NCBI GenBank assembly: GCA_016703065.1
Contig: JADJCU010000001.1
Location: forward strand, 296,526-360,525
Reading direction: 5' to 3'
Length of the DNA: 64,000 nt
Origin: a bacterium
Lineage (GTDB): Bacteria > Electryoneota > RPQS01
The position numbers and the translations under genes are program-made. The notes below the pieces were generated by a model. That model was not told the origin of the DNA. It saw nothing but the letters and a program-made list of their open reading frames with translations, and ran no database searches. This document shows positions 6,008 to 39,564 of this stretch, piece by piece. Position 1 is the first letter of the stretch, and each line of letters opens with the position of its first letter.

Positions 6008-6009
6008 TC

Positions 6010-7011
6010 TTGTATTCGCTCCTTAAGCCGATATTTTTCTCCCGAGACCCGGAAGAGGTGCACGAGCACGTCTTGCGAAGACTGGAACGCAGCTCGGCCT
6101 CGCGGTGGCAATTGGCCTTGCTGCGCGCGTTCGCAGGCGCCTGTCCTTCACAACCCGTCTCGGCATTGGGCCGCACCTTTCCACATCCTCTCGGCCTCGC
6201 CGCAGGCTTTGACAAAGATGCGCGCGCCATTCCTGCGCTCTGCGCACTCAATTTCGCCTTTGTTGAAATTGGCACAGTCACGCCGCTGCCGCAGCCGGGA
6301 AACGAGAAACCGCGCATCTGGCGCTTCCCCGAAGCCAATGCGCTCGTCAATGCGCTCGGCTTTCCCGGCGAAGGCATGCACGCGGTTAGACAGCGGCTCA
6401 CCATGCTCCGCGAACGTCATGCGCCGACTCGTCCCGTCGGCATAAATCTCGGCAAGAACGCCGTCACGCCGCTCGAACGAGCGGGAGACGACTATCAGGC
6501 TGTGCTGCGTGAACTGCTTGAACTCGGCGATTATTTTGTCGTCAACGTCTCTTCGCCCAACACTCCCGGTCTGCGTACTCTGCAAGAGCCAGACTCGTTG
6601 CGCAAACTGCTCGGTCCATTGCAGTCCATTACCGCACGCAAGCGCCCGCTGCTGCTCAAAGTCGCTCCCGATCTGGCCGACGAAGATCTGAACGTCGCCG
6701 CGCGAGTCGTCAATGAACTTGGTCTCGCGGGCATCGTCTCGGCCAACACCAGCGTTCGTCGCGCACTTGTGCCTGCTGCCGCATCGCTTCAGCGCGGCGG
6801 GCTCTCCGGCGCACCCATCTACCCGAGGATGCTCGAATGTCTGCGCCTGCTTAAATCTGAACTCAATTCAACGCGAATCGTCATCGCCGCCGGAGGAATT
6901 GACTCCGCTGCACGCGCCCGAGAAACGCTCGCTGCCGGCGCCGCGTTGCTGCAGGTTTACACAGCATTCATTTACCACGGTCCAAGGGTCGTAAGCAACC
7001 TGATCCGATGA
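6010..7011 (+). CDS. pyrD: dihydroorotate dehydrogenase (quinone), class 2
   Basis: Full-length match to the PyrD pattern: 'GLAAGFDK', 'FVEIGTVTPLPQPGN', 'NALGFPGEG', 'NVSSPNTPGLRTLQ', 'GGLSGAPI', 'IAAGGIDS'. Confidence 0.9.
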   Translation: MYSLLKPIFFSRDPEEVHEHVLRRLERSSASRWQLALLRAFAGACPSQPVSALGRTFPHPLGLAAGFDKDARAIPALCALNFAFVEIGTVTPLPQPGNEKPRIWRFPEANALVNALGFPGEGMHAVRQRLTMLRERHAPTRPVGINLGKNAVTPLERAGDDYQAVLRELLELGDYFVVNVSSPNTPGLRTLQEPDSLRKLLGPLQSITARKRPLLLKVAPDLADEDLNVAARVVNELGLAGIVSANTSVRRALVPAAASLQRGGLSGAPIYPRMLECLRLLKSELNSTRIVIAAGGIDSAARARETLAAGAALLQVYTAFIYHGPRVVSNLIR

Positions 7012-7517
7012 AACTGCTGCTCTATTTACTGTGTTCGGCGCTCGGGCTGGGCTGCTCCAAACCTGATCATTCCGCCCCCGGCGTCCAGACACTGCGCACT
7101 GTCTCCCGCGACGATTCACTCTTTCTCGCGGAAGACCTCACCGAGTGGGGCTTTGACTTCTATTCCTATGAGCAATGGGACTCCGGTCTGGTCAAGTTTA
7201 ATCTTGCGCTGTCGTACGACTCGACTAACTCTCAAGCCTGGCACGGCCGTGCGCTAATGCTCGACACCCTGCATTTTGAGCAGGATGCCGAGTTCGCCTA
7301 CCGACAAGCAGAGAAGTTAAACCCGCGCAATAAGCAGGCAATCTGGCACCTGGGCTGTTTTTATGCCCGCGCCGGCGAAAAGGACAAGGCGCTCCGGCAG
7401 CTCCGCACCGTCATTGCCCTCGACTCTTCTTATGCCATCGGCGTTCGCACCGAAGACTGTTGGACGCAACTCTGGCAGGACTCAGATTTCCTCCGAACCG
7501 TTGGCGCGCTGCCTTAG
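7008..7517 (+). CDS. TPR-repeat lipoprotein
   Basis: The ATG overlaps the pyrD stop (ATGA). It has a lipoprotein signal 'MKLLLYLLCSALGLGC|S' and TPR-like helices ('AWHGRALMLDTL..AEFAYRQAEKLNPRNKQAIWHLGCFYARAGEKDKALRQL'). Confidence 0.6.
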   Translation: MKLLLYLLCSALGLGCSKPDHSAPGVQTLRTVSRDDSLFLAEDLTEWGFDFYSYEQWDSGLVKFNLALSYDSTNSQAWHGRALMLDTLHFEQDAEFAYRQAEKLNPRNKQAIWHLGCFYARAGEKDKALRQLRTVIALDSSYAIGVRTEDCWTQLWQDSDFLRTVGALP

Positions 7518-7540
7518 CGCGAATCTACTACCTCAAATCA

Positions 7541-7566
7541 AAGCCCCCGGCATCGCGCCGGGGCTT
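7541..7566. terminator. bidirectional rho-independent terminator between convergent genes
   Basis: GC hairpin AGCCCCCGG..CCGGGGCT lies between the TPR gene (+) and the pepF-like gene (-). T-rich runs follow on both strands. Confidence 0.6.
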
Positions 7567-7574
7567 TCATCTAC

Positions 7575-9494
7575 TTAGTCAAGGCCTGACGATTTCCGTT
7601 TTGCTTTCGGCTTCGTTTCCTTGGCGGCCTTCTGCTCGGCAAGCAGAACTTCAAGCTCGTCCACCAACTCGCCAAACTTCTTCATGGCCGCTACTATCGG
7701 ATCGGGAGTGGACATATCCACGCCCGCGCCCTTCAGCAGCTCCAACGGATACTTCGACGAACCGCCCGACAGGAATCCGAGGTAATCCTTGAGCTCCTGC
7801 TCGCCGCCGTTCTGAACCCGCTCCGAAAGTGCAAGCGCCGCCGACATCGATGTCGCGTACTTATACACGTAGAAGTTCGAATAGAAATGCGGTATCCGTT
7901 CCCACGTGAAGTCATACTGCGGATCAATCACAACTTCCGGTGCATAATACTCCGAAGCCACCGTCCGGTATAACTCGCTCAACGACTCTGCCGTCAACGG
8001 CTCGCCGTTCTCGTACATCCGGTGCATTCTCAATTCGAAATCCGCAAACAGCGTCTGACGAATGATTGTGCCCTGAATATTGTCGATGTACTGATTCACA
8101 TAGATCAATCGCTTCTCCGGATCCGTCTCCGTCGCAAGCAGGTAGTCCATCAACAGCGCTTCATTAAACGTTGAAGCGACTTCCGCAACGAAGATCGCGT
8201 AGTCCGCGTAAATCTGCGGCTGATACTTGTACGTGTGCCACGTGTGCATCGTGTGGCCCAATTCGTGAGCATTGGTGAACACGTCATCCAACGTGCCGTG
8301 ATAGTTCAACAGCATATATGGATGGCTCTTGTAGCTGCCCCACGAATACGCGCCGCTGCGCTTCGCAGTGGTCTCATACACGTCGACCCAGCGCTTCGAG
8401 AAGACATCTTCTACTCCGCCCATGTACTCCGGACCAAGAGGTTGAAGGGCGTTCTTAATCGTCGCGATTCCGGTCTCATAGTCCCAGTTCGGAGCTTCGC
8501 CGACGATCGGCGCGCTGAAATCGTAGAAGTGCAGTTCTTCGAGTCCAAGCGCTTCCCGGCGCAGTTTCGCGTACTTCTGCAGCGGTGCCAGATTCGCCTT
8601 TACCGTCGTAATCAAATTCAGGTACACCGTCGTGTCGACGTTGTCATTGTCTACCGCCATGTGCAGCGCCGAATTGTAACCGCGAGCGCGCGCCTGAAAG
8701 ACCTCCGCACCCACGTTTGCCGCCATCAGGCTCGCCATCGTGTTCTTGTACTTCGAATACTCGTCGTGCAGCGCGACTGCCGCGGCCCGGCGGACCTTAG
8801 GACTCCCGCTCTCCATCAAGGCGCGGTATTTTCCTTCCGTCAGCTTGATCATCTTGCCGTCGTCGCCCTTGATTTCCGGAAACTGAATATCCGTGTTTCG
8901 CAGCGCTTCGGCAGCGGTCTCGGCCTGATTGAAGACCTCATTCGACATCGACATCAGCTTCTCTTCGTCCGACGACAGCACGTAAGCCTTCTGCCGCATC
9001 TCGTTCGCGATGTATTGCTTGTAAAGGTCGAGACCCTTAACATCCTTATACCACTTCGTCAAATTCGCGTCCGTGATCGAGGTCAACTCCGGAGCGAACC
9101 ACGACAATGTCGAGCCGAACTTCGCGGTAATAACATCCGATCGGTCACGCAGCGTAATGTACTCCTCTACACGCGTGTCCAAATGGTGCGACATGTTCGC
9201 ATACGTCGTCAGATTCTCCAAGTGACCGCCGACCTCAACCGACAAATCGAGAAATGCCTTCAGGTCCTTGCCGGATTTGCCAACCTTCCCTTTAAAGGCT
9301 TCCAATTCCGGAAGCTTGCTTTCGATCCACGCGTAGTCTGCTTCCCAGGCCGCGTTGTCTGCATACATCGCAGTCAAGTCCCACTTGTACTTATCCTCAA
9401 CGTCCGTCCGCTCTAATTCCTGCGCTTTCGCGACCCACACCAGACCAAGCACTGTCATCAAAATCCCGGCAAACCTGATGGTCCATGTTCTCAT
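7575..9494 (-). CDS. pepF: M3B family oligoendopeptidase F (secreted)
   Basis: Zinc motif 'HELGHTMH' within a full-length PepF-like sequence. The start is moved to ATG 9494, which gives a signal peptide (MRTWTIRFAGILMTVLGLVWVAKA); the listed ORF start at 9584 adds 30 non-hydrophobic residues. Confidence 0.85.
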   Translation of the reverse strand: MRTWTIRFAGILMTVLGLVWVAKAQELERTDVEDKYKWDLTAMYADNAAWEADYAWIESKLPELEAFKGKVGKSGKDLKAFLDLSVEVGGHLENLTTYANMSHHLDTRVEEYITLRDRSDVITAKFGSTLSWFAPELTSITDANLTKWYKDVKGLDLYKQYIANEMRQKAYVLSSDEEKLMSMSNEVFNQAETAAEALRNTDIQFPEIKGDDGKMIKLTEGKYRALMESGSPKVRRAAAVALHDEYSKYKNTMASLMAANVGAEVFQARARGYNSALHMAVDNDNVDTTVYLNLITTVKANLAPLQKYAKLRREALGLEELHFYDFSAPIVGEAPNWDYETGIATIKNALQPLGPEYMGGVEDVFSKRWVDVYETTAKRSGAYSWGSYKSHPYMLLNYHGTLDDVFTNAHELGHTMHTWHTYKYQPQIYADYAIFVAEVASTFNEALLMDYLLATETDPEKRLIYVNQYIDNIQGTIIRQTLFADFELRMHRMYENGEPLTAESLSELYRTVASEYYAPEVVIDPQYDFTWERIPHFYSNFYVYKYATSMSAALALSERVQNGGEQELKDYLGFLSGGSSKYPLELLKGAGVDMSTPDPIVAAMKKFGELVDELEVLLAEQKAAKETKPKAKRKSSGLD

Positions 9495-9798
9495 GCCGCT
9501 CGTCTCCTCGCTTCGCTGAATATGTAATTGCTCTGCCAATATTCTAAGAGACTGAATACTAACCCCTTTGTGGCAGAGTTGCAAGCCCCAAACACAACAT
9601 TTTCTTGGCTATTCTCAAACTCATAATATTCAATACTTTTGCGTAGATAATTGAGTTTAGTTTTTCGCAGGCGCGAACCCGCAGGAAGAGGCATTGCAAA
9701 CGGGCCTTGTCAAAACTGACTGGACATGTACCTAATTTGTCCGCCACTTACCGTGTTAGAGACCCGGTACATTCATGGTTTTCTCTGTGCAACATCCC

Positions 9799-9827
9799 TT
9801 GACTCCGCACTCGCCAACCCCGATATT
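9799..9827 (+). promoter_or_regulatory. sigma-70-like promoter with no ORF behind it
   Basis: TTGACT (9799-9804), a 17-nt spacer, then GATATT (9822-9827). Confidence 0.4.
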
Positions 9828-9833
9828 CTTGCT

Positions 9834-9990
9834 GTTAGCATTCAGCCGTGCAGGCGACGAGACGGACGATTATGCAGAGACTAATGTCGCGGTATTGTGT
9901 GAGATGATTTGATAGCTTGTTTACAGCATTGCGTTTGCTCTGGCGGATGGCGGCACAAGCCCCCGGTAATACCGGGGGCTTGTTGTTTGT
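9834..9990 (+). ncRNA. candidate small RNA (~155 nt) bounded by a promoter and a strong terminator; family unknown
   Basis: It lies between the 9799-9827 promoter and a perfect 12-bp hairpin CAAGCCCCCGGT/ACCGGGGGCTTG (9956-9982) followed by TTGTTTGT. There is no ORF of 60 aa or more on this strand. The next gene (10138) has its own promoter at 10055-10083. Confidence 0.25.
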
Positions 9991-12980: not shown

Positions 12981-13505
12981 CTACTTCGTCGGCTTCTGAA
13001 TCGTCTTGAGCGCCTTGACATAGTGGCTCTTCACACCATTGTTCTCTTCGCTCGCTGCCAATTTCTCGAAGACCGGCACGAGCTTTGCCCGCGTCTTGGG
13101 GTTGGCCTTGGCAATCGCGGCCAGCGCCAATGCTGCGGCCCAGCGGACAATCGTCCCGTCGTGTTTCGAATTTAAGAGCAACGACGGGATAGACGCAGAG
13201 ACTTCTGTGGGAAAGGCCTGGGCGCAGTTAGCAATCACCCGGCTGGCCTCGCGCTGAATCGCCGGGGCCAAGTTAGAAGTCTCGCCTATTATCCACTCGA
13301 GCTGACGTGCGGCGGTTTCGGGTTCCGTGCGCGTGACCTCCTCGATCGCTTCGAGAATCTGTGCTCGCTCAGGCCATTTTGCGCGCTCATAATACGTGCG
13401 CAGCTCGGCGATGCCTGTCTCCGCCGATCTCGCCCTATCGCACAGTACCGCAATTCGCGCTTTGCCTTTGTAGGTTTTGAAAATGGTGCCAATATCTGTC
13501 AGCAC
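12981..13505 (-). CDS. hypothetical protein, HEAT/armadillo-like helical repeats
   Basis: The ORF has coding-like composition. Helical repeats ('RWAAALALAAIAKANPKTRAKLVPVFEKL') resemble HEAT repeats. No diagnostic motif was recognised. Confidence 0.4.
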   Translation of the reverse strand: MLTDIGTIFKTYKGKARIAVLCDRARSAETGIAELRTYYERAKWPERAQILEAIEEVTRTEPETAARQLEWIIGETSNLAPAIQREASRVIANCAQAFPTEVSASIPSLLLNSKHDGTIVRWAAALALAAIAKANPKTRAKLVPVFEKLAASEENNGVKSHYVKALKTIQKPTK

Positions 13506-13526: not shown

Positions 13527-13907
13527 TCACCCGACTCGCATCACCCCTGCCGTACGTTCCGTCCCCAACACGATTTTGAACTTCCCCTTCTGCTCGGGAT
13601 AGAATGCAATCACCGTCGTGTGCCCCGCTGGCAGCAATTCGTAGATCTCAAGCTCGTTGATCTCGAGAATCTCGTCATCCGGCTCCGTGTCAAACCGGTG
13701 AATCAGCCATTGCACCGGCAGATTACACGTGATGTCGTACTCGACGGGCTCAAGGACTCCGTTCTTCAGTTTGGACTCAAACTGCTGCAGCTTGCGCTCC
13801 TCCCGAGGCACCCGGTGACCGGACCTGCCCCGAAAATAAAAATACCAAAAGACCGCCGCCACGAATGCCACCCCGGCAACCATCTTCCAAAAGCTTATAA
13901 TATCCAC
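13527..13907 (-). CDS. hypothetical single-pass membrane protein
   Basis: N-terminal transmembrane helix (FWKMVAGVAFVAAVFWYFYF) followed by a small beta-rich domain. It lies in tandem with the 12981 gene. Confidence 0.4.
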   Translation of the reverse strand: MDIISFWKMVAGVAFVAAVFWYFYFRGRSGHRVPREERKLQQFESKLKNGVLEPVEYDITCNLPVQWLIHRFDTEPDDEILEINELEIYELLPAGHTTVIAFYPEQKGKFKIVLGTERTAGVMRVG

Positions 13908-14548: not shown

Positions 14549-14754
14549 CAGTATCACGGACGGGGCCTGCCCCGCTACCGTGAGACAAAGTTCGCGATTT
14601 CGGTTTGTGTTCCTGTCCGTTGTTTCGCCGATATGTCCCTCGTCGATTCCGCAGCAGTTTTCACGGAAGTCGTTCGAGGGCGTTTTGCTCTCAAAAATCT
14701 GATCTGTTGATTGCGCAAGTCGTTTATTCGCAGATTTTTAGGGACAATGGAGAA
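14549..14754 (+). promoter_or_regulatory. conserved long 5' leader of RRM gene 1 (candidate cis-regulatory RNA)
   Basis: About 205 nt lie between the predicted TSS and the ATG. Block 14618-14692 (GTTTCGCCGAT..TGTCCCTC..CGATTCCG..CACGGAAGTCGTT..GAGGGC..GCTCTC) is conserved in the second leader (15285-15358), as is GGGACAATGGAGAAATG at the start codon. Confidence 0.45.
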
Positions 14755-15039
14755 ATGACGATGGCAACACGTCTTTATGTCGGAAACCTCCCGTTCAGTG
14801 CAACGGAAGATGAAGTTCGTACCCTGTTCAGCGAATTCGGTACGGTTGAAACCGCAGAATTGGTCATGGATCGCGATACCGGTCGTCCGCGTGGCTTCGG
14901 CTTCGTGCAGATGGACGCCGAAGGCGCCGCAGCTGCGATCAAGAAGCTCGATGGCCGTGACATGGGCGGTCGGGCCCTGAACGTCAACGAGGCCAAGGAG
15001 CGTACCGCCTCCCGCCCCCGTCGCGAAAACAACTGGTAA
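14755..15039 (+). CDS. RNA-binding protein, single RRM (RNP-1/RNP-2) domain
   Basis: RNP-2 'LYVGNL' and RNP-1 'RGFGFV' motifs with a basic C-terminal tail. GGAG RBS before ATG 14755; ATG 14761 is also possible. Confidence 0.9.
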   Translation: MTMATRLYVGNLPFSATEDEVRTLFSEFGTVETAELVMDRDTGRPRGFGFVQMDAEGAAAAIKKLDGRDMGGRALNVNEAKERTASRPRRENNW

Positions 15040-15213: not shown

Positions 15214-15422
15214 GTATGATGGACGGGCATCCGGCTCGCAACCATCCTCTGCAAGATCGCGATTTCAGTTAGTGTCAGCCTGTACGTCGTTTCGCCGATT
15301 GTCCCTCAGCGATTCCGAAGCAGTGTCCACGGAAGTCGTTTGAGGGCATTTCGCTCTCGTAAGTTATCGTCCGCGAAAAGTCAAGAAACTTGTTCGCAGT
15401 AACCAAGAGGGACAATGGAGAA
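15214..15422 (+). promoter_or_regulatory. conserved long 5' leader of RRM gene 2
   Basis: About 209 nt long, sharing conserved blocks with the first leader (15285-15358 versus 14618-14692). Confidence 0.45.
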
Positions 15423-15713
15423 ATGGCAATGGCCACACGTCTGTATGTTGGTAACCTCCCGTTCAGCGCGACGGAAGACGAAATTCGCACCATGTTTGGC
15501 GAATTCGGCACGGTGGAAGCCGTGGAGTTGGTGATGGATCGTGAAACCGGTCGCCCGCGTGGTTTCGGTTTTGTCCAGATGGACGCCGAAGGCGCCGCCG
15601 CCGCGATCAAGAAGCTTGACGGTCAGAATCTGGGCGGTCGCCCCCTGAACGTCAATGAGGCTCGCGAGCGTACCGCTCGCCCGCCCCGCCAGCGCCGCGA
15701 AAGCAACTGGTAA
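15423..15713 (+). CDS. RNA-binding protein, single RRM domain (paralog 2)
   Basis: Near-identical to the 14755 gene ('LYVGNLPFSATEDE', 'RGFGFVQMDAEGAAAAIKKLDG'). Start at ATG 15423 behind GGAG. Confidence 0.9.
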   Translation: MAMATRLYVGNLPFSATEDEIRTMFGEFGTVEAVELVMDRETGRPRGFGFVQMDAEGAAAAIKKLDGQNLGGRPLNVNEARERTARPPRQRRESNW

Positions 15714-15850: not shown

Positions 15851-17365
15851 CTACCGAAGCAAGATCGCTTTGGTTGAACGGATCGTCTCATTGGTTTGTA
15901 ATTGTATCCAATATGTTCCTGACGCGAGTCCTGCCATGTCAATCGGCACCTTGTGCGTTCCGGCGGGCAAGAAGATGTTCCGATTCATGCCGGCTGACCG
16001 TCCGAGCAAATCTTACATCGTGATTTGAGCAATGCCCGAAGTTTGTAAATCAAACTGGAGCGTCGCCTGCGCATTGAACGGATTGGGAAAGACGGACAGG
16101 TCGAGATTACCGGGCAACAATGGTTCGTACGGTGACACAGGACTCATGTCCGGACTCAAACGAATCAACCACATATCGCCGGTGGTATATGGCTCGAATC
16201 GAGTGTGCCAACCGGCAACTCCGGCCGCTGCAAAACCGCCATCTCGGAGGCTGATCAAGGCTTCGCCATCACGGTACAAATCTTGGAACCAGCTTCTGGC
16301 CCACACACTGTCTCCTGCGGAATCTACTTTGGCCATGTACAACGCTTGACCATTTGTCCCTGCCGGATCATCTCGTCCTGCTGCTATTACGCCCCCATCT
16401 TCCGTCGCCGCAAAGGCCTCAATCCCTAGTTGATTTATCCCCGCCAGATCCTTATCCCACATGTAATTCCCCATGGAATCCGTTCGTACAATCCACGCAT
16501 CGTCATACGTTTGACTCAGGCTGGCACTATACCCCCCCAAGAAAAATCCCCCGTCCGGTGCCAATGCGATGGCCCGCCCTTCTTCAGGACCTCCGTAACC
16601 GAATGTGCGGCTCCACAAGCTGTCCCCGTCAGGGGACACCTTGATCATCCAGAAGTCTGAGAACTCCCTGCACCATAAGAATCTGTAAAGCCGCAGGCAA
16701 CGTAGCCGCCTGTCTGGTGCAAGAGTGACAGCCCACCCGTAGTCCCACGCCGTGCTCCCACCGAATGATCGTGTCCAGAGCGTGTCACCGTCGCTACTGA
16801 ACTTCACCACCCAGAGGTCAGGCGAACCGCTCTACCTGCATCGGCCTGTTGCTACATAGTTTCCGTCCTCAACTGCAACCATGTCTTCAAACCATGTCCC
16901 GCCTCGTTCATCGCCAATCACGTTAGTCCAAACCGTGTCACCGTTCAAGCTGAGACGAAGCAACCAACCCAACGCTGGCTCCGGATTTGCCGGAGGGTAT
17001 CGTCCAATCTGGCCTGCGGCCATGTATCCGTCCTCCAGAACGAAAATCTTGGTGATGTAATCCGAGTATGCCCAGCCCCAACTATGGCTCCATTCTTCAT
17101 TGCCGAGCGAATCCACCTTAACCACATACGCATCAGCATTGCGCGTTTCAAATGTCTCGGCATTCCACGTTTCACCTGCGATGATGAACCCGCCATCAGG
17201 TGTCTGCGCAACAGAATGTGCAAGATCGTGATACTGCCTGCCGTATCTTCGCGTCCACAGCGTATCCGGTGGCTGGGCGTGCGCAAGAATGTTCCCACCC
17301 AACAACAAAAGCGCGAACCCCACCCGCTTCAAAAGATTGAAAACAGATAGAATTCGCGTGCTCAT
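15851..17365 (-). pseudogene. T9SS-sorted beta-propeller-like repeat protein, interrupted by two in-frame stops and one compensated frameshift pair
   Basis: Signal peptide (MSTRILSVFNLLKRVGFALLLLGGNILAHA) and repeated 'PDGG(F/Y)..AG......D.W(V/L/I)(V/I/R)K(V/L)...GD..W' blades. An in-frame TAG lies at 16832-16834. Frames shift by +1 and -1 between about 16660 and 16725; the alternative frame reads 'GGYVACGFTDSYGAGSS'. An in-frame TAA at 16013-16015 sits inside the T9SS tail ('PNPFNAQATLQFDLQTSGIAQITM*DLLGRSAG..LPAGTHKVPIDMAGLASGTYWIQLQ..ILLR'). It could instead be sequence error. Confidence 0.6.
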
Positions 17366-17456
17366 GTTCGTGGCCTCCGGGCTAAGTTGCTCCGACAGTT
17401 TCCCAAGACCTGAAGCAAAGGTACAACTTCGCCCGGTCCTTAGCAAATCCCCCCCG

Positions 17457-18381: not shown

Positions 18382-19008
18382 ATGAAGTCCAGACGGAACT
18401 ATCTGATCCTTACCGCAATGACACTCGGCGTCCTGACCAGCGCCTTCCTCTTTCCCAGGAATATCTCCGCTGCCGCGCTCCAGATCGGTGCTACCGCACC
18501 CGCCTTTGAATTGAAAAATGTCGACGAAAAGCTGGTCTCGCTTGCCGGTGCCGCCGGTGAAAAAGGCACGCTCGTCGTCTTCACCTGCAACCACTGTCCG
18601 TTTGCCATTGCCTACGAGGACCGCCTGATTGCCCTGGCCAAGGAGTTTCAAGCACAAGGCATCAATTTCATCGCCGTCAGCCCCAACGATCCTCTGCTTC
18701 AGCCCAAAGACGGCTTCGCTGAAATGCAGCAGCGCGCCAAAGAGAAAAGCCTGCCCTATCCGTATCTCATCAATGAAGACGGTTCCGTCGCCAAAGCCTA
18801 CGGCGCGGCACGTACGCCTGAAGCATTCCTCCTCGATACCGAGCTGAAAGTCGTCTACACGGGCCGCATTGATGACAACACGGAAGTCAAAGACGTCAAG
18901 GTCAACGACCTGCGCAACGCGCTGACCAAACTCGTCCAGGGCAAGCCCGGCGATATCGATCCGAAAACCACGGCAGCTTTCGGTTGCACCATCAAATTCC
19001 GCAAATAA
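18382..19008 (+). CDS. periplasmic thioredoxin-fold thiol:disulfide oxidoreductase (TlpA/AhpC-TSA-like redoxin)
   Basis: Signal/anchor sequence (MKSRRNYLILTAMTLGVLTSAFLF) and a CxxC active site 'FTCNHCPF'. The thioredoxin-like layout includes 'PYPYLINEDGSVAKAYGA..TPEAFLLD'. Confidence 0.75.
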   Translation: MKSRRNYLILTAMTLGVLTSAFLFPRNISAAALQIGATAPAFELKNVDEKLVSLAGAAGEKGTLVVFTCNHCPFAIAYEDRLIALAKEFQAQGINFIAVSPNDPLLQPKDGFAEMQQRAKEKSLPYPYLINEDGSVAKAYGAARTPEAFLLDTELKVVYTGRIDDNTEVKDVKVNDLRNALTKLVQGKPGDIDPKTTAAFGCTIKFRK

Positions 19009-19009
19009 C

Positions 19010-20053
19010 TCTGTTGCTCTACTCGCGGCGCTGCTCTGCTGCGCGCCGCTTTGTTGGCGCGCTGAACCCTATGTCATCGGCTTCTCCGGCGCGCCCGGCA
19101 CGCAATCGTGCGCGTCGTCCTGTCACGGCGAAGGCAGCGGCTCTGTCGAAATTCACGGCTTCCCCGAGTCCTACGTTCCCGATTCGCTCTATCTCATCCA
19201 GATCGCAAGTAGCGGACTCCTGATCAAGAACTTCAATGCGTCCTGCCGCTACGGCAATGGCACACAGGAGGCCGGAACCCTGAGCGGCACCGGCGTCACT
19301 GAAGCCTATTCCGTCGCCGGAGAGCTTAACGGAATTCACCTCGCGGAGGTCGATCAAGATACCGTCGAATTTCTCTGGCAGGCTCCCACACACGGCGCCG
19401 GCGAAGTTCGGCTCTATCTCGCGGCGCATCAGGGGCACGACACCGGACCGAACAATGATCTGATGCTGATCGCTCAAGAACAGATCGTTCCGCAGCGGCC
19501 CGACGTGCCGCATCACCCGTTTCCGGCTGATAGTGCCGTCGCTGTGAGTGTTAACGTAACGCTGTCATGGGATGAAGTCGCGCGCGCCGATTCGTTCCGC
19601 GTTTACTTCGGAGTAGATTCCCTCCCCGAACTTGTCGCCACGCAGCGCCTCGTGCAATATACTCCGCCGGAACTGGTTCCCGAATCGCGCTACTATTGGC
19701 GCGTCGAGGCATTTAACGATGTCGGCACATCGTCCGGGCCGCGCTGGACCTTCGTCACCGAAGCGTCTTCAAACTCTAACACCGCATTTCCATTAGCATT
19801 CAAATTTCATTCTTCTTATCCCAATCCATTTAATCACTCAACCTCCTTTTCCCTCGAACTCTACTCTCCTCAATATCTCGTCATTAGTGTTGTGAATATG
19901 CTGGGCCACCGCGTAGCTACGCTGCATCAAGGACAACTAAGCAGCGGAACCTACAGGTTTGACTGGACACCGGACGGCGCGACAGGTCTATACTTCCTGT
20001 CCGTCCGCGGCACCCCTACCGACCAACTCTTCAAACTTCTCTATCTGAAGTAG
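19010..20053 (+). CDS. T9SS-sorted protein, paralog 1 of the CX3CH-domain family (start codon not identifiable)
   Basis: The listed ORF starts at 19463. The same frame is open back to 19010 and encodes the family N-domain ('GFSGAPGTQSCASSCHGEGSGSVEIHGFPESYVPDSLYLIQI..GEVRLYLAAHQG') preceded by a signal-like 'ALLAALLCCAPLCW'. There is no ATG, GTG or TTG in frame. One Fn3-like 'YYWRVEAFNDVGTSSGPRWTFVT' module and a T9SS tail ('YPNPFNHST..LLYLK') follow. Confidence 0.5.
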   Translation, partial: SVALLAALLCCAPLCWRAEPYVIGFSGAPGTQSCASSCHGEGSGSVEIHGFPESYVPDSLYLIQIASSGLLIKNFNASCRYGNGTQEAGTLSGTGVTEAYSVAGELNGIHLAEVDQDTVEFLWQAPTHGAGEVRLYLAAHQGHDTGPNNDLMLIAQEQIVPQRPDVPHHPFPADSAVAVSVNVTLSWDEVARADSFRVYFGVDSLPELVATQRLVQYTPPELVPESRYYWRVEAFNDVGTSSGPRWTFVTEASSNSNTAFPLAFKFHSSYPNPFNHSTSFSLELYSPQYLVISVVNMLGHRVATLHQGQLSSGTYRFDWTPDGATGLYFLSVRGTPTDQLFKLLYLK

Positions 20054-20155
20054 GCCGCCCAACGATGCGGCGCAATGGGACGCGAAAGCGTCCGCGCATC
20101 AACACTGAATTTCTGAGGAAGCAATTTTACATAACTATCTGTAGGAGAGTAGATC

Positions 20156-21328
20156 ATGAAACAGCTTTGGTTGTTCGTCCTTTTGATTGTCTCGAGCGTA
20201 AGTTTCGCCACCATTCACCCCGTGAATGTCAATGCGCTGTCGTTCTCGCCCGCAAATCTCACGGTGCAGCAGGGCGATACTGTCCGTTGGATCAAGACCG
20301 GTGGTTTTCACAATGTCTCCGAAGTCTCGAATCCGTCCGTCTTCCGCAGCGGTGAACCCACCGGAAGCGCTTTCACGTACGATTTCGCTTTCAATGCCCC
20401 GCTTTCAGGCACCTACAACTACGAGTGCGAAGTTCACGCCGGATCAGGCATGGTCGGGACCGTCACCGTCGAAGCCGGTGGTTCGCCGCCGGATGCGCCG
20501 ACTTACCTCGGACCGATGAATGGCGCAACCGATCTTGCAACTTCCGGCAGCTTGCAGTGGAATACTGCGCTTGGCGCTGACCACTACATCGTCCGCCTCG
20601 GCACCTCAAATCCGCCTGCAATTGTGGATGCTGACTTCAACGGTACGTCGTACGACTACTCCGGCCTGAGCAACGGCACACAGTATTTCTGGCAGATCAT
20701 CTCTGAAAATGATTTTGGCACGGCCGATGGCAATGTCTGGTCCTTCACCACAATCGATCCGCTGCCGGGGCAGGCGAACAGTCCATTCCCGGTTGACACC
20801 GCCACAAACGTCCCGATTACGACCTTCCTCGGTTGGGATCCTGCCGATTTCGCCGATAGCTATGAAGTCTTTATCGGAACGGCTGAGCCGCTCACATCCC
20901 TCGGCACAACGACGGAAACGACGATTACGCCGACGGCCGCACTGATCCACTCGACCAGTTATCTCTGGCGCGTGAACTCCACCAACGGTGCGGGCACGAC
21001 CACTGGTGCCACTTGGCACTTCACCACTGAAGCAGGTTCCGCAGTTGGTGATCGTCCCATCCCGACGGCCTTCGAACTCGGCGCGGCCTACCCCAATCCG
21101 TTCAACAGCAACGTTCGGATCAGCCTGAGTATTCCAACCGAGAGCTTCGCACTTGCGCGAGTCTATGCCATCACGGGCCGCGAAGTGGCCACGCTCCTGA
21201 CTGCGCTGATGTCCGCCGGAGCGCACGACCTCGAGTGGAATGCGGCCGGACAGTCCGCCGGTCTCTACTTCCTGAAGTGCGAGTGCGCCGGCCTTACGCA
21301 AACGCAGAAACTCATCTATCTGCCGTAG
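20156..21328 (+). CDS. T9SS-sorted type-1 copper (cupredoxin/plastocyanin-like) protein with three Fn3-like modules
   Basis: Signal peptide MKQLWLFVLLIVSSVSFA and a cupredoxin domain with ligands 'GFHNV' (His) and 'YECEVHAGSGM' (C-X2-H-X4-M). Three 'P..dgA.nv....L.W......Y.(V/I)..G...........YFW/YLWRV..N..G...G..W.FTT' modules precede the T9SS tail 'YPNPFNSNV..KLIYLP'. Confidence 0.8.
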   Translation: MKQLWLFVLLIVSSVSFATIHPVNVNALSFSPANLTVQQGDTVRWIKTGGFHNVSEVSNPSVFRSGEPTGSAFTYDFAFNAPLSGTYNYECEVHAGSGMVGTVTVEAGGSPPDAPTYLGPMNGATDLATSGSLQWNTALGADHYIVRLGTSNPPAIVDADFNGTSYDYSGLSNGTQYFWQIISENDFGTADGNVWSFTTIDPLPGQANSPFPVDTATNVPITTFLGWDPADFADSYEVFIGTAEPLTSLGTTTETTITPTAALIHSTSYLWRVNSTNGAGTTTGATWHFTTEAGSAVGDRPIPTAFELGAAYPNPFNSNVRISLSIPTESFALARVYAITGREVATLLTALMSAGAHDLEWNAAGQSAGLYFLKCECAGLTQTQKLIYLP

Positions 21329-21379
21329 TTCCTGCGAGACATCTAATCCACAGTTCTTGCTGCGGTTGACCAGTTCATG

Positions 21380-21420
21380 CCCCCCCATTCTCCGCCGTGA
21401 GAATGGGGGGAGTGCTTTTT
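21380..21420 (+). terminator. rho-independent terminator
   Basis: Perfect 12-bp stem CCCCCCATTCTC/GAGAATGGGGGG followed by AGTGCTTTTT. Confidence 0.8.
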
Positions 21421-21440
21421 CAATTCTGAGGTATTGCTCC

Positions 21441-22505
21441 ATGTTCCGCAACCTGTTCTTGGTCACAGCGCTTGTTTCGTTCGCCTCAATCGCCGCCGCC
21501 GACCCTGGCAATCGCGGCTACTCTGGTGCCCCCGGCACTCCGGGCCGTTGTGCCTCCGCCTGCCATGGGGTCAATGGCGGCACCGTCCAAATCACTGGAT
21601 TCCCGACGGAATATGTCCCGGACTCAACTTATCTGATTACCATTCAGGCCGTATCGGGATTGCCGATCAAGAACTTCAACGGCTCTGTGCGCCGGGGAAC
21701 ATCCACTGCCAACGCCGGTGTCATCACCGCTGCGACAAACACGACAACGTACAATGTCGTCAATGAAACCAACGGCATTCACCTCAATGCGCTCGACCGC
21801 CAAAGCGCCACCTTTAACTGGCGAGCCCCGGACGCCGGTACCGGAACGGTCCGGCTCTATGTCGGTGCCCATCAGGGCGAACGCCACACCGGGCCCAATA
21901 CCAATATCACCCTGATCTCTGACGAAGCTGTTCTGCCCGCCGCCCCCGGCCAGGCCCAGAATCCGAATCCTGCTGACGGCGCGTCAAACGTCGCCATGCC
22001 CGTGATCCTCCGCTGGAGCAGTGCCGCTGGCGCCGAAAGCTATGAAATTTTTCTCGGAACCGCCGAACCATTGCTCTCCATCGGCAGCTCGTTCGCAACG
22101 TCTATCGTCCCGCCGGATTTGCTCCCCGGTCAATACTACATCTGGCGAGTCGATGCAATCAACGATGGCGGGACGACACCCGGCGATATCTGGAGTTTCA
22201 CTACCGAGTCCGGTTCAGACGCACGAGAGCACGGTATCGTCCTGAACAGCTCACTCGTGTCAGCCTACCCCAATCCCTTTAACAGCACGGTAATTCTCTC
22301 CCTGACGCTGGCGAATTCCGGACTGACAACGGTCACTATATTTGACATTACCGGTCGCGAAATCGCGACTCTCGCCAATGAGTTTCTTGCGCAAGGTGAA
22401 CACCGGTTTGGCTGGAATGCCGCTGGATACGCCGCCGGTATCTATGTCTTCAGGTGCGATTGCGCAGGTTTGACACTCTCACAAAAAGTTGCTTTCTTAC
22501 CCTAA
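21441..22505 (+). CDS. T9SS-sorted protein, paralog 2 of the CX3CH-domain family
   Basis: Start at ATG 21441 (signal MFRNLFLVTALVSFASIAAA). N-domain 'GYSGAPGTPGRCASACHGVNGGTVQITGFPTEYVPDSTYLITI..GTVRLYVGAHQG', one Fn3-like module, and the T9SS tail 'YPNPFNSTV..KVAFLP'. Confidence 0.7.
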   Translation: MFRNLFLVTALVSFASIAAADPGNRGYSGAPGTPGRCASACHGVNGGTVQITGFPTEYVPDSTYLITIQAVSGLPIKNFNGSVRRGTSTANAGVITAATNTTTYNVVNETNGIHLNALDRQSATFNWRAPDAGTGTVRLYVGAHQGERHTGPNTNITLISDEAVLPAAPGQAQNPNPADGASNVAMPVILRWSSAAGAESYEIFLGTAEPLLSIGSSFATSIVPPDLLPGQYYIWRVDAINDGGTTPGDIWSFTTESGSDAREHGIVLNSSLVSAYPNPFNSTVILSLTLANSGLTTVTIFDITGREIATLANEFLAQGEHRFGWNAAGYAAGIYVFRCDCAGLTLSQKVAFLP

Positions 22506-22586
22506 CGCGTGACGGTCTTTCCGATCGGGGAAGTTGGCGAGACTCGCTTGTGTCTCGCTTAATTCTTCAATCAGGAGGCTCCTGTC

Positions 22587-23954
22587 ATGTTCCTCACTCG
22601 CACTGTTTGCCTGCTATTGCTTCTTTCTGTGGCAGGTACCGTCCTCGCGCGCTCGAACTTCCGGGCCTATTCGGGTGCTCCCGGCACGCTCGGATCCTGT
22701 GCCTCGTCCTGTCACGGACAATCAAACGGCACCGTAGAAATCACCGGCTTCCCGGAGAGCTACGTCCCCGACTCCACCTACCTCATCACGATTGCTGCCG
22801 TCAGCGGGCAGTCCATCAACAATTTCAACGCCTCCGTCCGGGTCGGTACGGGTTCAACGAACGCGGGAACCCTTTCCAACGGCGCAAACGTCTCTACGTA
22901 CAACGTTGCGCAAGAGACCAACGGCGTTCACTTCTCGACGAATAACCACACCAGCGGCACGTTTAACTGGCTCGCTCCCGCGGAAGGCACCGGAACCGTG
23001 CGGCTCTACGCTGGCTCCTTCCAAGGCACTAACGAAAACAGCGGTCAAAACTCGGAGTTTGTTCTCGTCGCCGAGGAAGACGTCATTGAAGCACCGCCCG
23101 GATTGGCAACCAATCCCTCGCCTCCAGATAGCGCGGTCGACGTCCCGGTGATGAACACCTTACTCGCATGGACTGCTGCAAACCGCGCGAATAGCTATGA
23201 GATCTTCATCGGCCTTGAAGATGCCTATTGGTCCATCGGCTCAACCACCGCGACCAATATCACAATTCCCGATGTGCTGAACTACGCCGCTGACTACGTT
23301 TGGCGAGTGGACCCGACCAACGACTTCGGCACAACCACCGGCACAACGTGGCACTTCAGCACCGAAGCCGAGCTGCCGCCGCTTCCTGATCAAGTCGCCA
23401 ACCCATCTCCTGCGAATGGCGCACAAAATGTCCCCGTCACCCTCACACTCGTGAGCTGGGGTGCCGCGAATGGCGCGGAGAGTTATCAAATCTATTGGGG
23501 ACTTACGTCTACCCCCGACTATCTCGGCGCGATACCGATGACGAACTTCGTCATGACGAATGACTTGCTCTTCGATACCATGTACTATTGGCGGATCAAT
23601 TCTGTCAATCAAGCCGGTGTCACGGAAGGCGCGCTGTGGAGCTTCCGCACCGAAGCGCAATCCGCTCTCGGCGATCAGCCGCTTGCCATCGAGTTCGTCG
23701 TCAGCCCTGCCTATCCGAATCCGTTTAACAGCTCCGTTCACATCGCGCTCAGCGTACCCGTGGCCGACCGCATTACCGCCCTCATCTACGACCGGCTGGG
23801 CCGTGCTGTTGCGACCCTCGCGGATAATCAACCCTTTGCCAGCGGTATCACGTTGCTGTCGTGGAATGCGCAAGCTCATGCCGCCGGAACCTACTTTTTG
23901 CGCGTAGAGTCTTCGCACAATGCACACACTCAGCGCCTGATCTATTTGCCGTAA
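22587..23954 (+). CDS. T9SS-sorted protein, paralog 3 of the CX3CH-domain family
   Basis: AGGAGG RBS and signal MFLTRTVCLLLLLSVAGTVLA. N-domain 'AYSGAPGTLGSCASSCHGQSNGTVEITGFPESYVPDSTYLITI..GTVRLYAGSFQG', two Fn3-like modules, and the T9SS tail 'YPNPFNSSV..RLIYLP'. Confidence 0.7.
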   Translation: MFLTRTVCLLLLLSVAGTVLARSNFRAYSGAPGTLGSCASSCHGQSNGTVEITGFPESYVPDSTYLITIAAVSGQSINNFNASVRVGTGSTNAGTLSNGANVSTYNVAQETNGVHFSTNNHTSGTFNWLAPAEGTGTVRLYAGSFQGTNENSGQNSEFVLVAEEDVIEAPPGLATNPSPPDSAVDVPVMNTLLAWTAANRANSYEIFIGLEDAYWSIGSTTATNITIPDVLNYAADYVWRVDPTNDFGTTTGTTWHFSTEAELPPLPDQVANPSPANGAQNVPVTLTLVSWGAANGAESYQIYWGLTSTPDYLGAIPMTNFVMTNDLLFDTMYYWRINSVNQAGVTEGALWSFRTEAQSALGDQPLAIEFVVSPAYPNPFNSSVHIALSVPVADRITALIYDRLGRAVATLADNQPFASGITLLSWNAQAHAAGTYFLRVESSHNAHTQRLIYLP

Positions 23955-24032: not shown

Positions 24033-25571
24033 CTACGGTCGAGAGCAGACGACAAAGAACTGCCGGTCATCCGCAATAGTGGCCGGATCAATGACCACCA
24101 TCGTATCTGTTGTCGTACTCACGAACGCGTACGGACCATCCGACGACGCCGAGGCCTTTAAGTCGTATTGTACGCCGGGCGGCGATCCTGTGGGCCGCTT
24201 CCAGCGGAGCTCAATCATCCCGCCCACAACGTGCGCCACCAGTTCCCCCGGCGGACCGGGCAGAACAACGTCACCAAACGGATACGCCCCGATGTCCGCC
24301 ACTGTGCCGTCGGGGTCATGCGGCCGCGACGGACTTGCGGCGTCAATGCACGTGGAGGCCGCAGTCAAATGCAAGTCCCGCGCTGCCGTGTCCGCAAACA
24401 ACGGATCATTGAACAGATTGTGATAGACGTCGCACGAGTCTCCGTTCGCGTTCAGCATTGATAGCTGGCCCAGACCCGGCGCTGCAAGCGTCGAGTCATC
24501 GCTCCAAAACCGAATGTTGCCGTTTGCGTTCCCGTAGAAGTCACAGTATTCGATGGTCGCGTTTTGATCCCACGTATTGTCTATCATCAGACCCGAGTTG
24601 CTCGAGAATGCGAAGATACAGCCGCTGATAACTGACGGCGACCAACAGTACATCTCCCCGCCGTACTCCGTCGCCCGGTTCAGCGCGAATGTGCAGTGGT
24701 AAAAGAACGTCGTATCTTCACTCAAATACACTGCTCCGCCATAGACCGCGCTATTGTCATAGAACACGCATTGGTCAAAGACCGGCTTGGGAGACGTGTA
24801 GTTTGCCAAAATCGCGCCGCCCCATTAGAACGCCGAGTTGCCCGCAAACACGCAACGATTGAATTGCGGAGCTGCGTAGAAGACCATGTTCACCGCGCCG
24901 CCGCCGCCGCCATAGAACTCATCGGCGTTCAATGTCGCTGAGTTACCGATGAAGTCGCAGTCGTTGAACACCGGGTCCGCCGACTGCTCCAAATTCACCG
25001 CGCCGCCGTACTGCGCATGATTATCCACGAAGTCACACGCTGTGAACACCGGGCTCGCTCCGTAAGTTGCACTCATGCCGCCGCCATAGTATGTCGGTGC
25101 AATGTTGTGCCGAATCGAGCAATGGGAAACGACAGGAGACGATGTTGAGAAGTAGAGGCCGCCGCCCTTTGTTTCCTCATATGGCCGCCAGTAATCTGAA
25201 GCCCGGGCATATTCTATCACACTGTACTCTAACCGCGAGGCGCTCGATCCTTCGGAAAAGCGTAGGCCGCCCCACCGCTCCTGAATTGCCGCCGTATCAC
25301 ACGTGAACGTCACGGAATCCGCAGCGGTCCCAAGCGCCTTCAGTATCCCGTACACGTCAACCTTATACCATCCCTCAAACCGGACTATGACTCCCGGTTC
25401 GATTATCAGAGAGTCCGCCGCATCAACATAGATATCGCCGCCGATCACAAAGGGACTGTTAGCCGTCACCCACATTCCGGAGACGGCACCGCCCGGTATC
25501 ACGGTGTCCGCACTGACGCTCTGCGCAATAGTCAGCACCGCGAAACATAACAGGAATTTTAGCTGCTTCAT
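24033..25571 (-). pseudogene. secreted right-handed beta-helix repeat protein with a single in-frame TAA
   Basis: Signal MKQLKFLLCFAVLTIAQSVSA (start ATG 25571). Repeated 'N.A..YGGA(V/I)' coils run straight through the stop at 24825-24827 ('CVFAGNSAF*WGGAILANYTSPKPVFDQCVFYDNSAVYGGAVYL'). The C-terminal domain is Fn3-like. It is paralogous to the 48413-50557 gene. Confidence 0.6.
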
Positions 25572-25728
25572 TTTCGCACCTATTTTGTCACAATTGAGGC
25601 ATGACAATATAAGTTACGTAACGCATCGCCGAGGTTCAAGCAAAAAGAAACCGCACATTCGGGCAATCGCGAACGATGAGTCGCTTTGCGCCGCACGTGC
25701 GGGTCAATGTGGTTCTATTCCCCTGCCG

Positions 25729-27164
25729 CTACATCAGATGAATCGACTTGATGACCAGCATCTTCTCGACTTGCATGTCCCGAATCGAATACGGTATTCC
25801 CCCCACGCCAAACCCCGAGTGCCTTAATCCCGCAAACGGCATCCAATCGACTCGAAACGCCGTATGCTCGTTGACCATCACCGCCGAGCCATTCAGCTTC
25901 GTGAACGCTTGCATCGCCGTATCAAGACTCCGGGTATACACTGCCGCCTGAAACACATACGGCGTGTTGTTTGCCCGCGTAATCGCCTCGTCCATGTCCT
26001 TGTATGGATACACGCACACCACTGGACCGAAAATCTCCTGCGTCGAAACTTTTGAACTGTCTTGCGCATTCCACAACACTGTGCAGCTATAGCACGTATC
26101 CGACACCGGCACGGCGCCCGACAACGGGACTGCTCCTCTGCAATCGCTTCACGCACCCACATGTTCACCCGCGTAACTTCCTGCGGTCTAATCAGCGGGC
26201 CTATATCTGTCTCCGACTGCGTTGGATTCCCGACAACTTGCTTCTTGGCCACTTCTGCCAGCGCATGCGCGAAATCCGCCGCAATCGAATCATGAACATA
26301 GATGCGCTGCGTTGAAACGCATACCTGCCCCGCATGGTAAAAGCTCGCCTTCGCCAACGGCCCGACCGCAGCGCGCCAATCCGCGTCTTCCGCTACGATC
26401 ACCGGCGCTATCCCGCCATGCTCCAAGGCACAGCGCGTCCCCGGCGCCAACTTCGACCGCAGCATCCAACCCACCTTTGCGCTGCCGATAAACGTCAGAA
26501 AACCGACGCGCCAATCCGTCGCGAGCTTCTCTGCAACGCTCAACTCGCTCGTGATACAGGCCTGACACCACGGCTCAGGCAGGCCCGCTTCATACAGCAT
26601 CCTCACAAACCGGAAACACGACAACGGCGCGTCATCGGCTGGCTTAACAACCACCGGGCAGCCGGCAGCAACTGCCGGACCCACCTGATGCGCAATCAGA
26701 TTCAGTGGATGATTAAACGCACTGATCGCCACCACCACGCCAATCGGCTCCCGCCGCGTCACCGCGAGCTTCCCGGACGATGCCGCATTTAAGTTCATCG
26801 CGATCTCCCGCCCCGCGTCTGTGCGCAGCGTCTCGATACACACCCGAATACTGTCCGCCGCGCGCAGCACCTCGACTCGTGAATCGACCAACGGCTTGCC
26901 CCCCTCACGAGATGCTTCAATCGCCAGATACTCCGCGCGCTCGAGAATCAACTTAGCCAGCTTCTCAAGGATCTCAAGTCGCTTGTGCACGGGAAGCCAG
27001 GCGTCCCGATCGCTGAACAACGCATGAGCGGTTGTTAGCGCGGCCTCGATGGCCTCGCCACCTGCCGTGTCCACGGTCGCAATCGGTGCCCGGTCGAACG
27101 GAGCGACCGCCTGCACGTGCCCGGATGCTTTCGCGCCCGGAATCATCAATGGATAATGTTCCAT
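25729..27164 (-). pseudogene. NAD(P)-dependent aldehyde dehydrogenase, frameshifted
   Basis: ALDH hallmarks ('AISAFNHPLNL', 'CALEHGGIAPVIV', 'AGQVCVSTQRIYV') run up to '..VREAIAE'. The family sequence then continues in another frame ('GAVPLSGAVPVSD..EIFGPVVCVYPYKDMDEAI..AVMVNEHTAFRVDWMPFAGLRHSGFG'). The shift is at about 26118-26135. Confidence 0.7.
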
Positions 27165-39451: not shown

Positions 39452-39564
39452 AATTTCCAGTCACTTAGAACTTGACATTTTGGGTCATCTATGGCACATT
39501 GATGCAATACGTGGCCATACCTCGTGGACCTCGATCACCAGCCTTACACCTGAGGGAGTTTAGG

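Follow-up and report, generated by a model that had tools for sequence, protein, structure and literature searches.

Putative surface-displayed monohaem c-type cytochromes on a Reeler-type fold, encoded in one array with a blue-copper protein

The window analysed in this study is a 64-kb stretch of contig JADJCU010000001.1 from a bacterium of the Electryoneota lineage. It contains a block of five genes (18382-23954) coding for a thioredoxin-fold protein (here called redoxin), three paralogous proteins with a common N-terminal head, and a predicted type-1 copper protein that stands between the first and the second paralogue. We propose, with a probability of roughly 55%, that the three paralogues are cell-surface monohaem c-type cytochromes, in which a single haem would be attached to a Cys-X3-Cys-His segment ahead of a β-sandwich of the Reeler (choice-of-anchor V) fold. 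A description of these proteins as c-type cytochromes that are exported through a type IX secretion system (T9SS) is new relative to the annotations and the literature that we searched.

All five reading frames were confirmed on the forward strand at the coordinates of Table 1, in agreement with the same-strand block described in an earlier note on this DNA. The three paralogues are ≈40% identical overall and have an N-terminal domain of ≈145 residues in common, which follows the pattern G(Y/F)SGAPG...C-x3-C-H-G...GFP..YVPDS.YLI...VRLY. The Cys-X3-Cys-His motif, which the earlier note had reported as common to all three, is seen in the alignment as CASSCH, CASACH and CASSCH in paralogues 1, 2 and 3, respectively, and its spacing falls within the range of the c-type cytochrome motif Cys-Xn-Cys-His (n = 2-4). 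This shared domain cannot be a chance resemblance because the same domain defines a family of 919 representative proteins, which were found at E ≤ 1e-3 in an exhaustive profile search with the N-terminal domain (77 of them at E ≤ 1e-30); this search took the place of a word-based one that had returned only 6 close matches. The representative clusters span Bacteroidota, Ignavibacteria, KSB1/Calditrichota, Zixibacteria, Acidobacteria and myxobacteria, and paralogue 3 belongs to the same profile family.

The main new argument for covalently bound haem comes from the conservation of this motif. It was counted in the best 153 of the 919 profile hits, which had not been pre-selected for it. Cys, Cys and His occupy the same columns in all of the 130 proteins that cover the N-terminus (130/130), and the remaining 23 are N-terminally truncated or frameshifted fragments. 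The spacing between the cysteines amounts to three residues in 84 of the 130 proteins, to two (canonical CxxCH) in 39, to four in 4 and to one in 2. The motif thus always ends in CH behind a spacer of mostly 2, 3 or 4 residues; it is present once per protein, always N-terminally and close to the mature N-terminus, and multihaem fusions were looked for in the family and not found. An alignment of 103 sequences, pre-selected for the motif unlike the above count, has a mean column identity of only 12% and four invariant columns, three of which are the C, C and H of the motif. Such a constant CH, behind spacers that range from two to four residues, corresponds to the pattern of covalent haem c attachment. 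The Ccm system of E. coli matures CX3CH and CX4CH variants and is not known to mature CXCH. CxxxCH and CxxxxCH are also listed as variant haem-binding motifs (PMC7901989). The suggestion of the earlier note that CX3CH is such a variant has gained strength, for relatives of the three paralogues have CxxCH, Cx3CH or Cx4CH at the same alignment position. Paralogues 2 and 3 begin with hydrophobic signal peptides that, judged by inspection, are of the Sec type and lack a twin-arginine motif.

The head itself belongs to a domain that is already catalogued, without an assigned function, as choice-of-anchor V (Reeler-like). In scans with NCBIfam model NF041895 (cut-off 42 bits), full-length paralogue 1 scored 43.6 bits and the N-terminal domain of paralogue 2 scored 43.4-43.8 bits; no match was reported for paralogue 3 or for the trimmed domain of paralogue 1, and membership is therefore borderline at the level of the single sequence. 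It is backed by the family profile: 87/103 relatives match NF041895 (best E 2.7e-35), and 33/103 match the MXAN_6652 family (NF041894). In both named families the same domain is N-terminal and is followed by alternative C-terminal anchors. This architecture is also found here: behind the head, 57/103 relatives have T9SS type A tails and 7/103 have CHU_C, and others carry IPTL-CTERM (P0005), matches to the MXYO-CTERM family or dockerin-like tails. The earlier guess at a 'choice-of-anchor' domain was thus right. Note that the family name covers the architecture only, and that the Cx3CH subfamily of the window, in which paralogue 3 is without a direct match, is a divergent branch of choice-of-anchor V. 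Names on record for the family are 'T9SS type A sorting domain-containing protein', 'choice-of-anchor V domain-containing protein' and 'hypothetical protein'; the first of these is also the name of the NCBI protein P0180, which is 100% identical to paralogue 2. No annotation source calls these proteins cytochromes, and the literature searched on choice-of-anchor V, MXAN_6652 and Reeler in connection with haem contained nothing relevant on the bacterial domain.

Structure prediction places the head in the Reeler fold. The AlphaFold2 model that was computed from the 103-sequence alignment (predicted local distance difference test score, pLDDT, 93.6; predicted template-modelling score 0.89) consists of a nine-strand sandwich after a short helix (residues 19-24), and it is this helix that holds C19-x3-C23-H24; the model replaces an earlier run on 9 sequences in which the pLDDT of the motif region was <50. 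The top 8 matches in the PDB are all to the Reeler domain of F-spondin (2ZOT_A: template-modelling (TM) score 0.67/0.72, root-mean-square deviation 3.8 Å, E 1.5e-8; Foldseek E of the fold match, 5e-9). A profile search of PDB sequences found F-spondin weakly (E 0.047) next to spurious ferredoxin matches, and the Pfam Reeler model PF02014 (cut-off 21 bits) gave sub-threshold scores for paralogue 2 (16.5-18.7 bits) and paralogue 3 (18.1 bits, E 0.004) and no match for paralogue 1, whereas 42/103 relatives match it with up to 36 bits (best E 9.7e-10). The window heads and the Reeler domains of F-spondin and reelin (N-terminal in both; 2ZOT, 2ZOU, 3COO) have the same sandwich and share GxP..Y.PG..Y and F.W.AP..GTG. 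The conserved residues of the family other than the motif (GFP..Y.P...Y and F.W.AP..GTG) are also present in haem-free F-spondin and therefore define the fold. The solved Reeler domains contain no cofactor, and the CxnCH segment is an N-terminal addition to them: it lies outside the Pfam Reeler alignment, in which matches start at profile position 19-25, and it is absent from F-spondin. A homology of the motif to the N-termini of eukaryotic Reeler domains was also considered; it is unsupported because the CxnCH segment never aligns to the N-terminus of the Pfam model.

The match to F-spondin can be taken to speak for a different explanation, according to which the heads are adhesion or binding modules, the usual view of Reeler domains, of ordinary T9SS adhesins, the Cys-Cys-His group has a structural role as a disulfide or a metal site, and the cupredoxin and the redoxin are mere neighbours. 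The F-spondin Reeler domain is a heparin-binding module, and in relatives the head is fused to PKD, CARDB, Big_5, HYR and MAM stalks. In CYBDOM proteins, too, the Reeler domain is presented as an adhesion module whose function is unknown (PMC10691727). A structural disulfide would, however, leave unexplained why a histidine invariably follows the second cysteine (130/130) and why spacers of 2, 3 or 4 residues are tolerated in front of a fixed CH. The position of the motif outside the conserved Reeler core, and its absence from F-spondin, also argue against an adhesin-type role, and the recurrent adjacency of the redoxin and the head swap in the cupredoxin (see below) would need coincidence. 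We regard this explanation as unlikely, though not negligible.

The blue-copper protein of the array is built on the same plan as the paralogues. Its head matches Pfam Copper-bind (PF00127) with 41.9 bits (cut-off 21.2), and His52, Cys91, His94 and Met99 fall on ligand positions in an alignment with plastocyanin 1BXU; the complete type-1 ligand set that had been noted before is confirmed by this alignment, and the gene product is most likely a type-1 (blue) copper protein. All four cargo proteins contain fn3-like modules, recognised by weak matches and a Y.WRV signature, and end in a T9SS type A sorting domain (TIGR04183/PF18962, cut-off 23 bits), which scores 28.9 bits in paralogue 1, 32.8 in the cupredoxin, 35.1 in paralogue 2 and 35.0 in paralogue 3; the last also matches Por_Secre_tail with 35 bits. 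The display of all four at the cell surface, predicted earlier from these modules and tails, therefore remains the predicted outcome. The stalk and the C-terminal domain of the cupredoxin are 47% identical to those of paralogue 2 and, over 287 amino acids, 38% identical to those of paralogue 3, and the cupredoxin is thus the chassis of the paralogues with a swapped head. Since the copper head sits on the same stalk and tail, the array resembles a kit of exchangeable one-electron heads, with copper in one and presumably haem iron in the others. The window is rich in genes for cargo with T9SS tails, which are also found at 16013-16810, 42653-45370 and 45705-46382, in addition to the four of the array.

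The vicinity of a copper protein raises the question of whether the motif binds copper or another soft metal instead of haem. The heads would then be surface scavengers or chaperones for the cupredoxin, and the redoxin would keep their thiols reduced in the manner of TlpA/Sco-type proteins. Cu(I) is well coordinated by Cys and His, the fold shows weak matches to the copper-binding β-sandwich of YcnI (TM ≈0.45), and in L023, one of the related loci (L001, L003 and so on) that were compared with the window, a Cu-type P-ATPase adjoins two Reeler genes. The window has two cupredoxin genes besides the one of the array, and blue-copper genes thus number three in the 64 kb. One of the two (13527-13907, reverse strand) codes for a small protein of the Cupredoxin_1 type that has a membrane segment at its N-terminus; this gene adjoins a gene for a HEAT-repeat protein (12981-13505) and is also syntenic in L001 and L018. 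The other (39472-40149, forward strand) codes for a plastocyanin-like protein of 225 amino acids without a T9SS tail. Metal-chaperone motifs, however, normally keep to one spacing, in contrast to the 2 to 4 residues here; a CH pair that is adjacent and invariant is the hallmark of haem c; the heads have no Met- or His-rich tracts; and a linkage to cupredoxins is absent outside one clade. A copper site in place of the haem c site therefore seems improbable to us.

In the haem c reading the redoxin has a part of its own. It is a protein of the thioredoxin fold (Pfam AhpC-TSA, E 6.9e-21; Redoxin, E 8.2e-19) with a hydrophobic stretch at the N-terminus (signal or anchor), and it resembles ResA, CcmG (DsbE) and TlpA in this secreted fold, in its CxxC site and in the position of its gene upstream of CxnCH proteins. 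It differs from them in its active site, CNHC, and in scores that stay far below the NCBIfam cut-offs (ResA, 43.1 bits of 170; DsbE, 19.5 of 123; PRK15412, 16.9 of 359). The closest structures are 2YWI (E 2e-34), 2CVB and 3U5R, all of them uncharacterised thioredoxin-like proteins, and ResA follows with an E of 1e-5 only. Of the earlier description as a TlpA/ResA/CcmG-like protein, the secreted CxxC thioredoxin fold and the kinship at superfamily level stand, and the closer relationship does not, given 43 bits to ResA against a cut-off of 170. At most the redoxin may work like ResA or CcmG.

Gene order in related loci supports an association of redoxin and head. A redoxin gene is located directly upstream of a Reeler-CxnCH gene in the window and in L001, L003, L004, L005, L008, L012, L018 and L020, and the redoxins of the window and of its relatives are 54-88% identical. 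The full array of redoxin, Reeler 1, cupredoxin, Reeler 2 and Reeler 3 is also present in L003 (a metagenome-assembled genome, MAG, of Calditrichaeota), L004, L005 and L020; it is fragmented in L012 and lacks paralogue 1 in L001. In L008 and in the KSB1 locus L018 the redoxin is followed by a single Reeler gene and nothing more of the array, and the flanks of L018 match those of the window, with cupin and glyoxalase genes upstream and an aldehyde dehydrogenase gene downstream. The conserved core in KSB1/Calditrichota-like MAGs is thus the redoxin plus one Reeler gene, and the expansion of the paralogues and the cupredoxin are restricted to one clade. The linkage to the cupredoxin on which the earlier note had drawn is weakened: it is confined to this narrow clade, and distant family members have unrelated neighbours. 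The triplication is old, since orthologues of each paralogue are 52-61% identical compared to 39-47% between the paralogues. Tandem Reeler-CxnCH genes also occur in other lineages, with three in L019 (4533-8608) and two in L006 (8413-10918). Some of the genes in the tandem arrays of L019, L006 and L023 are without a T9SS tail and end in a C-terminus of the type '...Y.VTA..P'; in L023 (Bryobacteraceae, 6001-9968) one Reeler-CxnCH domain is fused to a NosD-like β-helix and adjoins the gene of a heavy-metal P-type ATPase.

Neighbouring genes also bear on the idea that the head captures haem or iron non-covalently, like a haemophore, and feeds TonB-dependent receptors. Binding of haem by all-β proteins has precedents in HmuY and in NEAT domains, and three distant family members (L014, L017 and L022) have as neighbours TonB-receptor-like genes (Plug, CarboxypepD_reg), FeoA, or a sigma factor of the extracytoplasmic function (ECF) type with a TonB_C protein. 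This proximity is weak evidence because TonB-dependent receptors are very numerous in Bacteroidota. Neither the window nor the close relatives have such neighbours, and haemophores are not known to use CxxCH. We consider a haemophore-like function to be quite improbable.

If the paralogues are c-type cytochromes, the following sequence of events can be envisaged. Each paralogue would be exported by Sec. In the periplasm one haem would be covalently attached to both cysteines of C-x3-C-H, which lies in the short helix ≈17 residues from the mature N-terminus, and the histidine would become the proximal ligand. The co-located, secreted CxxC thioredoxin-fold protein would keep the cysteines of the motif reduced ahead of the attachment. 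The folded holoprotein would then pass to the T9SS by means of its C-terminal sorting domain and be displayed on its Fn3-like stalk. Together with the blue-copper neighbour, which has the same stalk and tail, the array could provide a set of interchangeable haem-iron and copper heads for one-electron transfer at the surface. Of this picture, the analysis shows the gene structure, the fold, the family membership, the invariance and spacing of the motif, the common chassis and the synteny, and the attachment of haem, the part of the redoxin, the location at the surface and a function in electron transfer are inferred.

Known systems offer partial analogies for such an arrangement. Cytochrome f and the fused cytochrome-porins of the Cyc2 type have a single CxxCH near the mature N-terminus, followed by an all-β body, and Cyc2 works together with the cupredoxin rusticyanin in iron oxidation. 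The window heads have the same layout of one N-terminal motif and an all-β body. This is an analogy and not membership: no sequence or fold match to cytochrome f or Cyc2 was found, and, unlike a porin or the membrane-anchored subunit of a complex, the body is here a soluble sandwich of the Reeler type that stands on a stalk. Plastocyanin and cytochrome c6, as well as pseudoazurin and cytochrome c551, are pairs of a blue-copper protein and a small monohaem cytochrome that act as alternative one-electron carriers; they are soluble, periplasmic or lumenal, and have known partners. Here, a cupredoxin head and CxnCH heads are found on homologous stalks and tails within one array, which suggests that they might be interchangeable; in contrast to the above pairs, the proteins of the window would by prediction be tethered on the outside of the outer membrane, and no partner is known for them.

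Several results weigh against the assignment as cytochromes. The profile and structure comparison of the N-terminal domain, a check that the earlier note had proposed, gave the Reeler fold, for which a redox role is not known, and the structural matches of the AlphaFold2 head model include no haem protein; the best of them is the haem-free Reeler domain of F-spondin. Among the fusion partners of the head in relatives, adhesin-like modules (Ig, PKD or CARDB) prevail. Distant family members with CxxCH are mostly solitary genes among heterogeneous, unrelated neighbours, and their lack of redox neighbours is also in line with the adhesin explanation. The redoxin is a relative within the thioredoxin-fold superfamily and not an orthologue of ResA, CcmG or TlpA. 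It is not obvious how electrons would reach the cell from a lone haem carried on a long stalk that does not conduct, and we found no T9SS-exported c-type cytochrome in the literature searched. Two family members have C-x-CH, a spacing for which we know of no haem binding. A conserved distal ligand was looked for in the family and not found: a second histidine ('ETNGIH') is present in ≈70% of the members and is replaced by Arg in several orthologues of paralogue 2. Bis-His ligation as a general feature was rejected on this ground, as the only candidate histidine varies among orthologues. Finally, the 64-kb window has no reading frames for Ccm or Ccs proteins and none with multiple CxxCH motifs or of the multihaem type; nor was Cyc2 found there. 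The locus L020 of a close relative, which shows ≈67-76% nucleotide identity to the window, does encode a lipoprotein of 454 amino acids in which CxnCH occurs ten times; its gene (865-2229, reverse strand) lies 2.6 kb upstream of that of the redoxin. This lipoprotein has no Pfam annotation on record, no relative in the PDB and no counterpart in the window; on account of its motifs the lineage can presumably mature c-type cytochromes.

A wider version of our proposal is more tentative, and we would give it somewhat short of even odds: the bacterial Reeler/choice-of-anchor V domain could represent monohaem c-type cytochromes of a widespread class that has gone unrecognised so far. This class would have a new cytochrome fold and would reach the surface through the T9SS and other sorting systems; in the present lineage it would have been expanded and combined with a blue-copper head that stands on the same stalk, as a surface redox toolkit of haem iron and copper. 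As a weaker corollary, the eukaryotic CYBDOM ferric reductases (Reeler, DOMON and cytochrome b561) may have a Reeler domain that derives from a redox module and not from an adhesion module. If the motif binds haem, a function would be available for a domain of many phyla that is now annotated only as 'sorting domain' or 'choice-of-anchor', the c-type cytochromes would gain a new fold, and the T9SS would be shown to export haem-loaded redox proteins. The latter would bear on extracellular electron transfer, metal cycling and the oxidative breakdown of polymers in poorly known phyla of sediments and soils, and it would open a route to testing the role of Reeler domains in ferric-reductase-type proteins of animals and plants. 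Should the motif bind no haem, the array would be a cluster of surface proteins of the usual T9SS kind, though with a metal or disulfide site that is out of the ordinary.

Table 1 Features of the redoxin, Reeler-type and cupredoxin gene array (window coordinates)
Feature	Position	Strand	Remarks
CxxC thioredoxin-fold protein (redoxin), secreted or anchored	18382-19008	+	208 aa; C69-N-H-C72 at 18586-18597; Pfam AhpC-TSA/Redoxin
Paralogue 1	19010-20053	+	Reeler/choice-of-anchor V head ~19079-19489; CASSCH 19109-19126; no canonical start codon
Paralogue 1, one Fn3-like module	~19553-19738	+	fn3 E 3.6e-5; T9SS C-terminal sorting domain ~19817-20050
Predicted T9SS-sorted type-1 copper protein	20156-21328	+	cupredoxin head ~20225-20473; two Fn3-like modules ~20498-21040; C-terminal sorting domain ~21089-21328
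Terminator-like hairpin	21381-21410	+	between cupredoxin and paralogue 2; 12-bp stem, 8 GC pairs, T-rich tail
Paralogue 2	21441-22505	+	signal peptide; Reeler/choice-of-anchor V head 21504-21935; CASACH 21549-21566
Paralogue 2, T9SS C-terminal sorting domain	~22266-22505	+	preceded by one Fn3-like module
Terminator-like hairpin	22536-22559		gap between paralogues 2 and 3
Paralogue 3	22587-23954	+	signal peptide; Reeler-type head 22650-23090; CASSCH 22698-22715
Paralogue 3, two Fn3-like modules	~23091-23651	+	T9SS C-terminal sorting domain ~23712-23954

Paralogue 1 in the window is without a recognisable start. Its frame is open from 18926 and has no in-frame ATG, GTG or TTG until 19463; as listed in Table 1 it begins 1 nt past the stop codon of the redoxin (TAA, 19006-19008), and right after this stop codon only the hydrophobic core of a signal peptide is left. 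The orthologues in L003, L004 and L005 (L003_p1, L004_p1 and L005_p1; 52-54% identity) have a start and a signal peptide of their own, and the junction to the redoxin gene consists of a spacer in L004 and L005 and of an ATGA overlap in L003. The loss may go back to an indel from sequencing or assembly, to a true deletion or to the use of a rare start codon; with other split genes in the assembly, none of these is preferred. A programmed +1 frameshift that would fuse the redoxin to paralogue 1 was judged unlikely, since the relatives keep separate genes, each with its own start. Split genes in the vicinity, which are either assembly frameshifts or pseudogenes, comprise an aldehyde dehydrogenase gene in two overlapping frames on the reverse strand (25893-27164 and 25729-26124, together 25729-27164; Aldedh is intact in relatives, with 477-537 amino acids), a β-helix gene (24033-25607, reverse strand) that is split at ≈24810-24825, and a gene for a T9SS-tailed protein (16013-17446, reverse strand) that is apparently split at ≈16810-16832.

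The strong hairpin between the cupredoxin gene and paralogue 2 suggests that the five genes need not form one transcript, and with the second hairpin, between paralogues 2 and 3, the array may consist of several transcription units. Terminator-like sites in total are no more numerous than in shuffled sequence, and the hairpin at 21381-21410 is thus suggestive only.

Further features of the window lie apart from the array. Two small genes for RNA-binding proteins of the RRM type stand in tandem on the forward strand (14605-15039 and 15390-15713; 'MATRLYVGNLPFSATEDE...'), and the corresponding pair in L001 is annotated as PF00076 RRM_1. An Omp85/TamB pair is located at 70-4736. The GC skew is negative in all 2-kb windows but one (cumulative -4.28), though genes are found on both strands.

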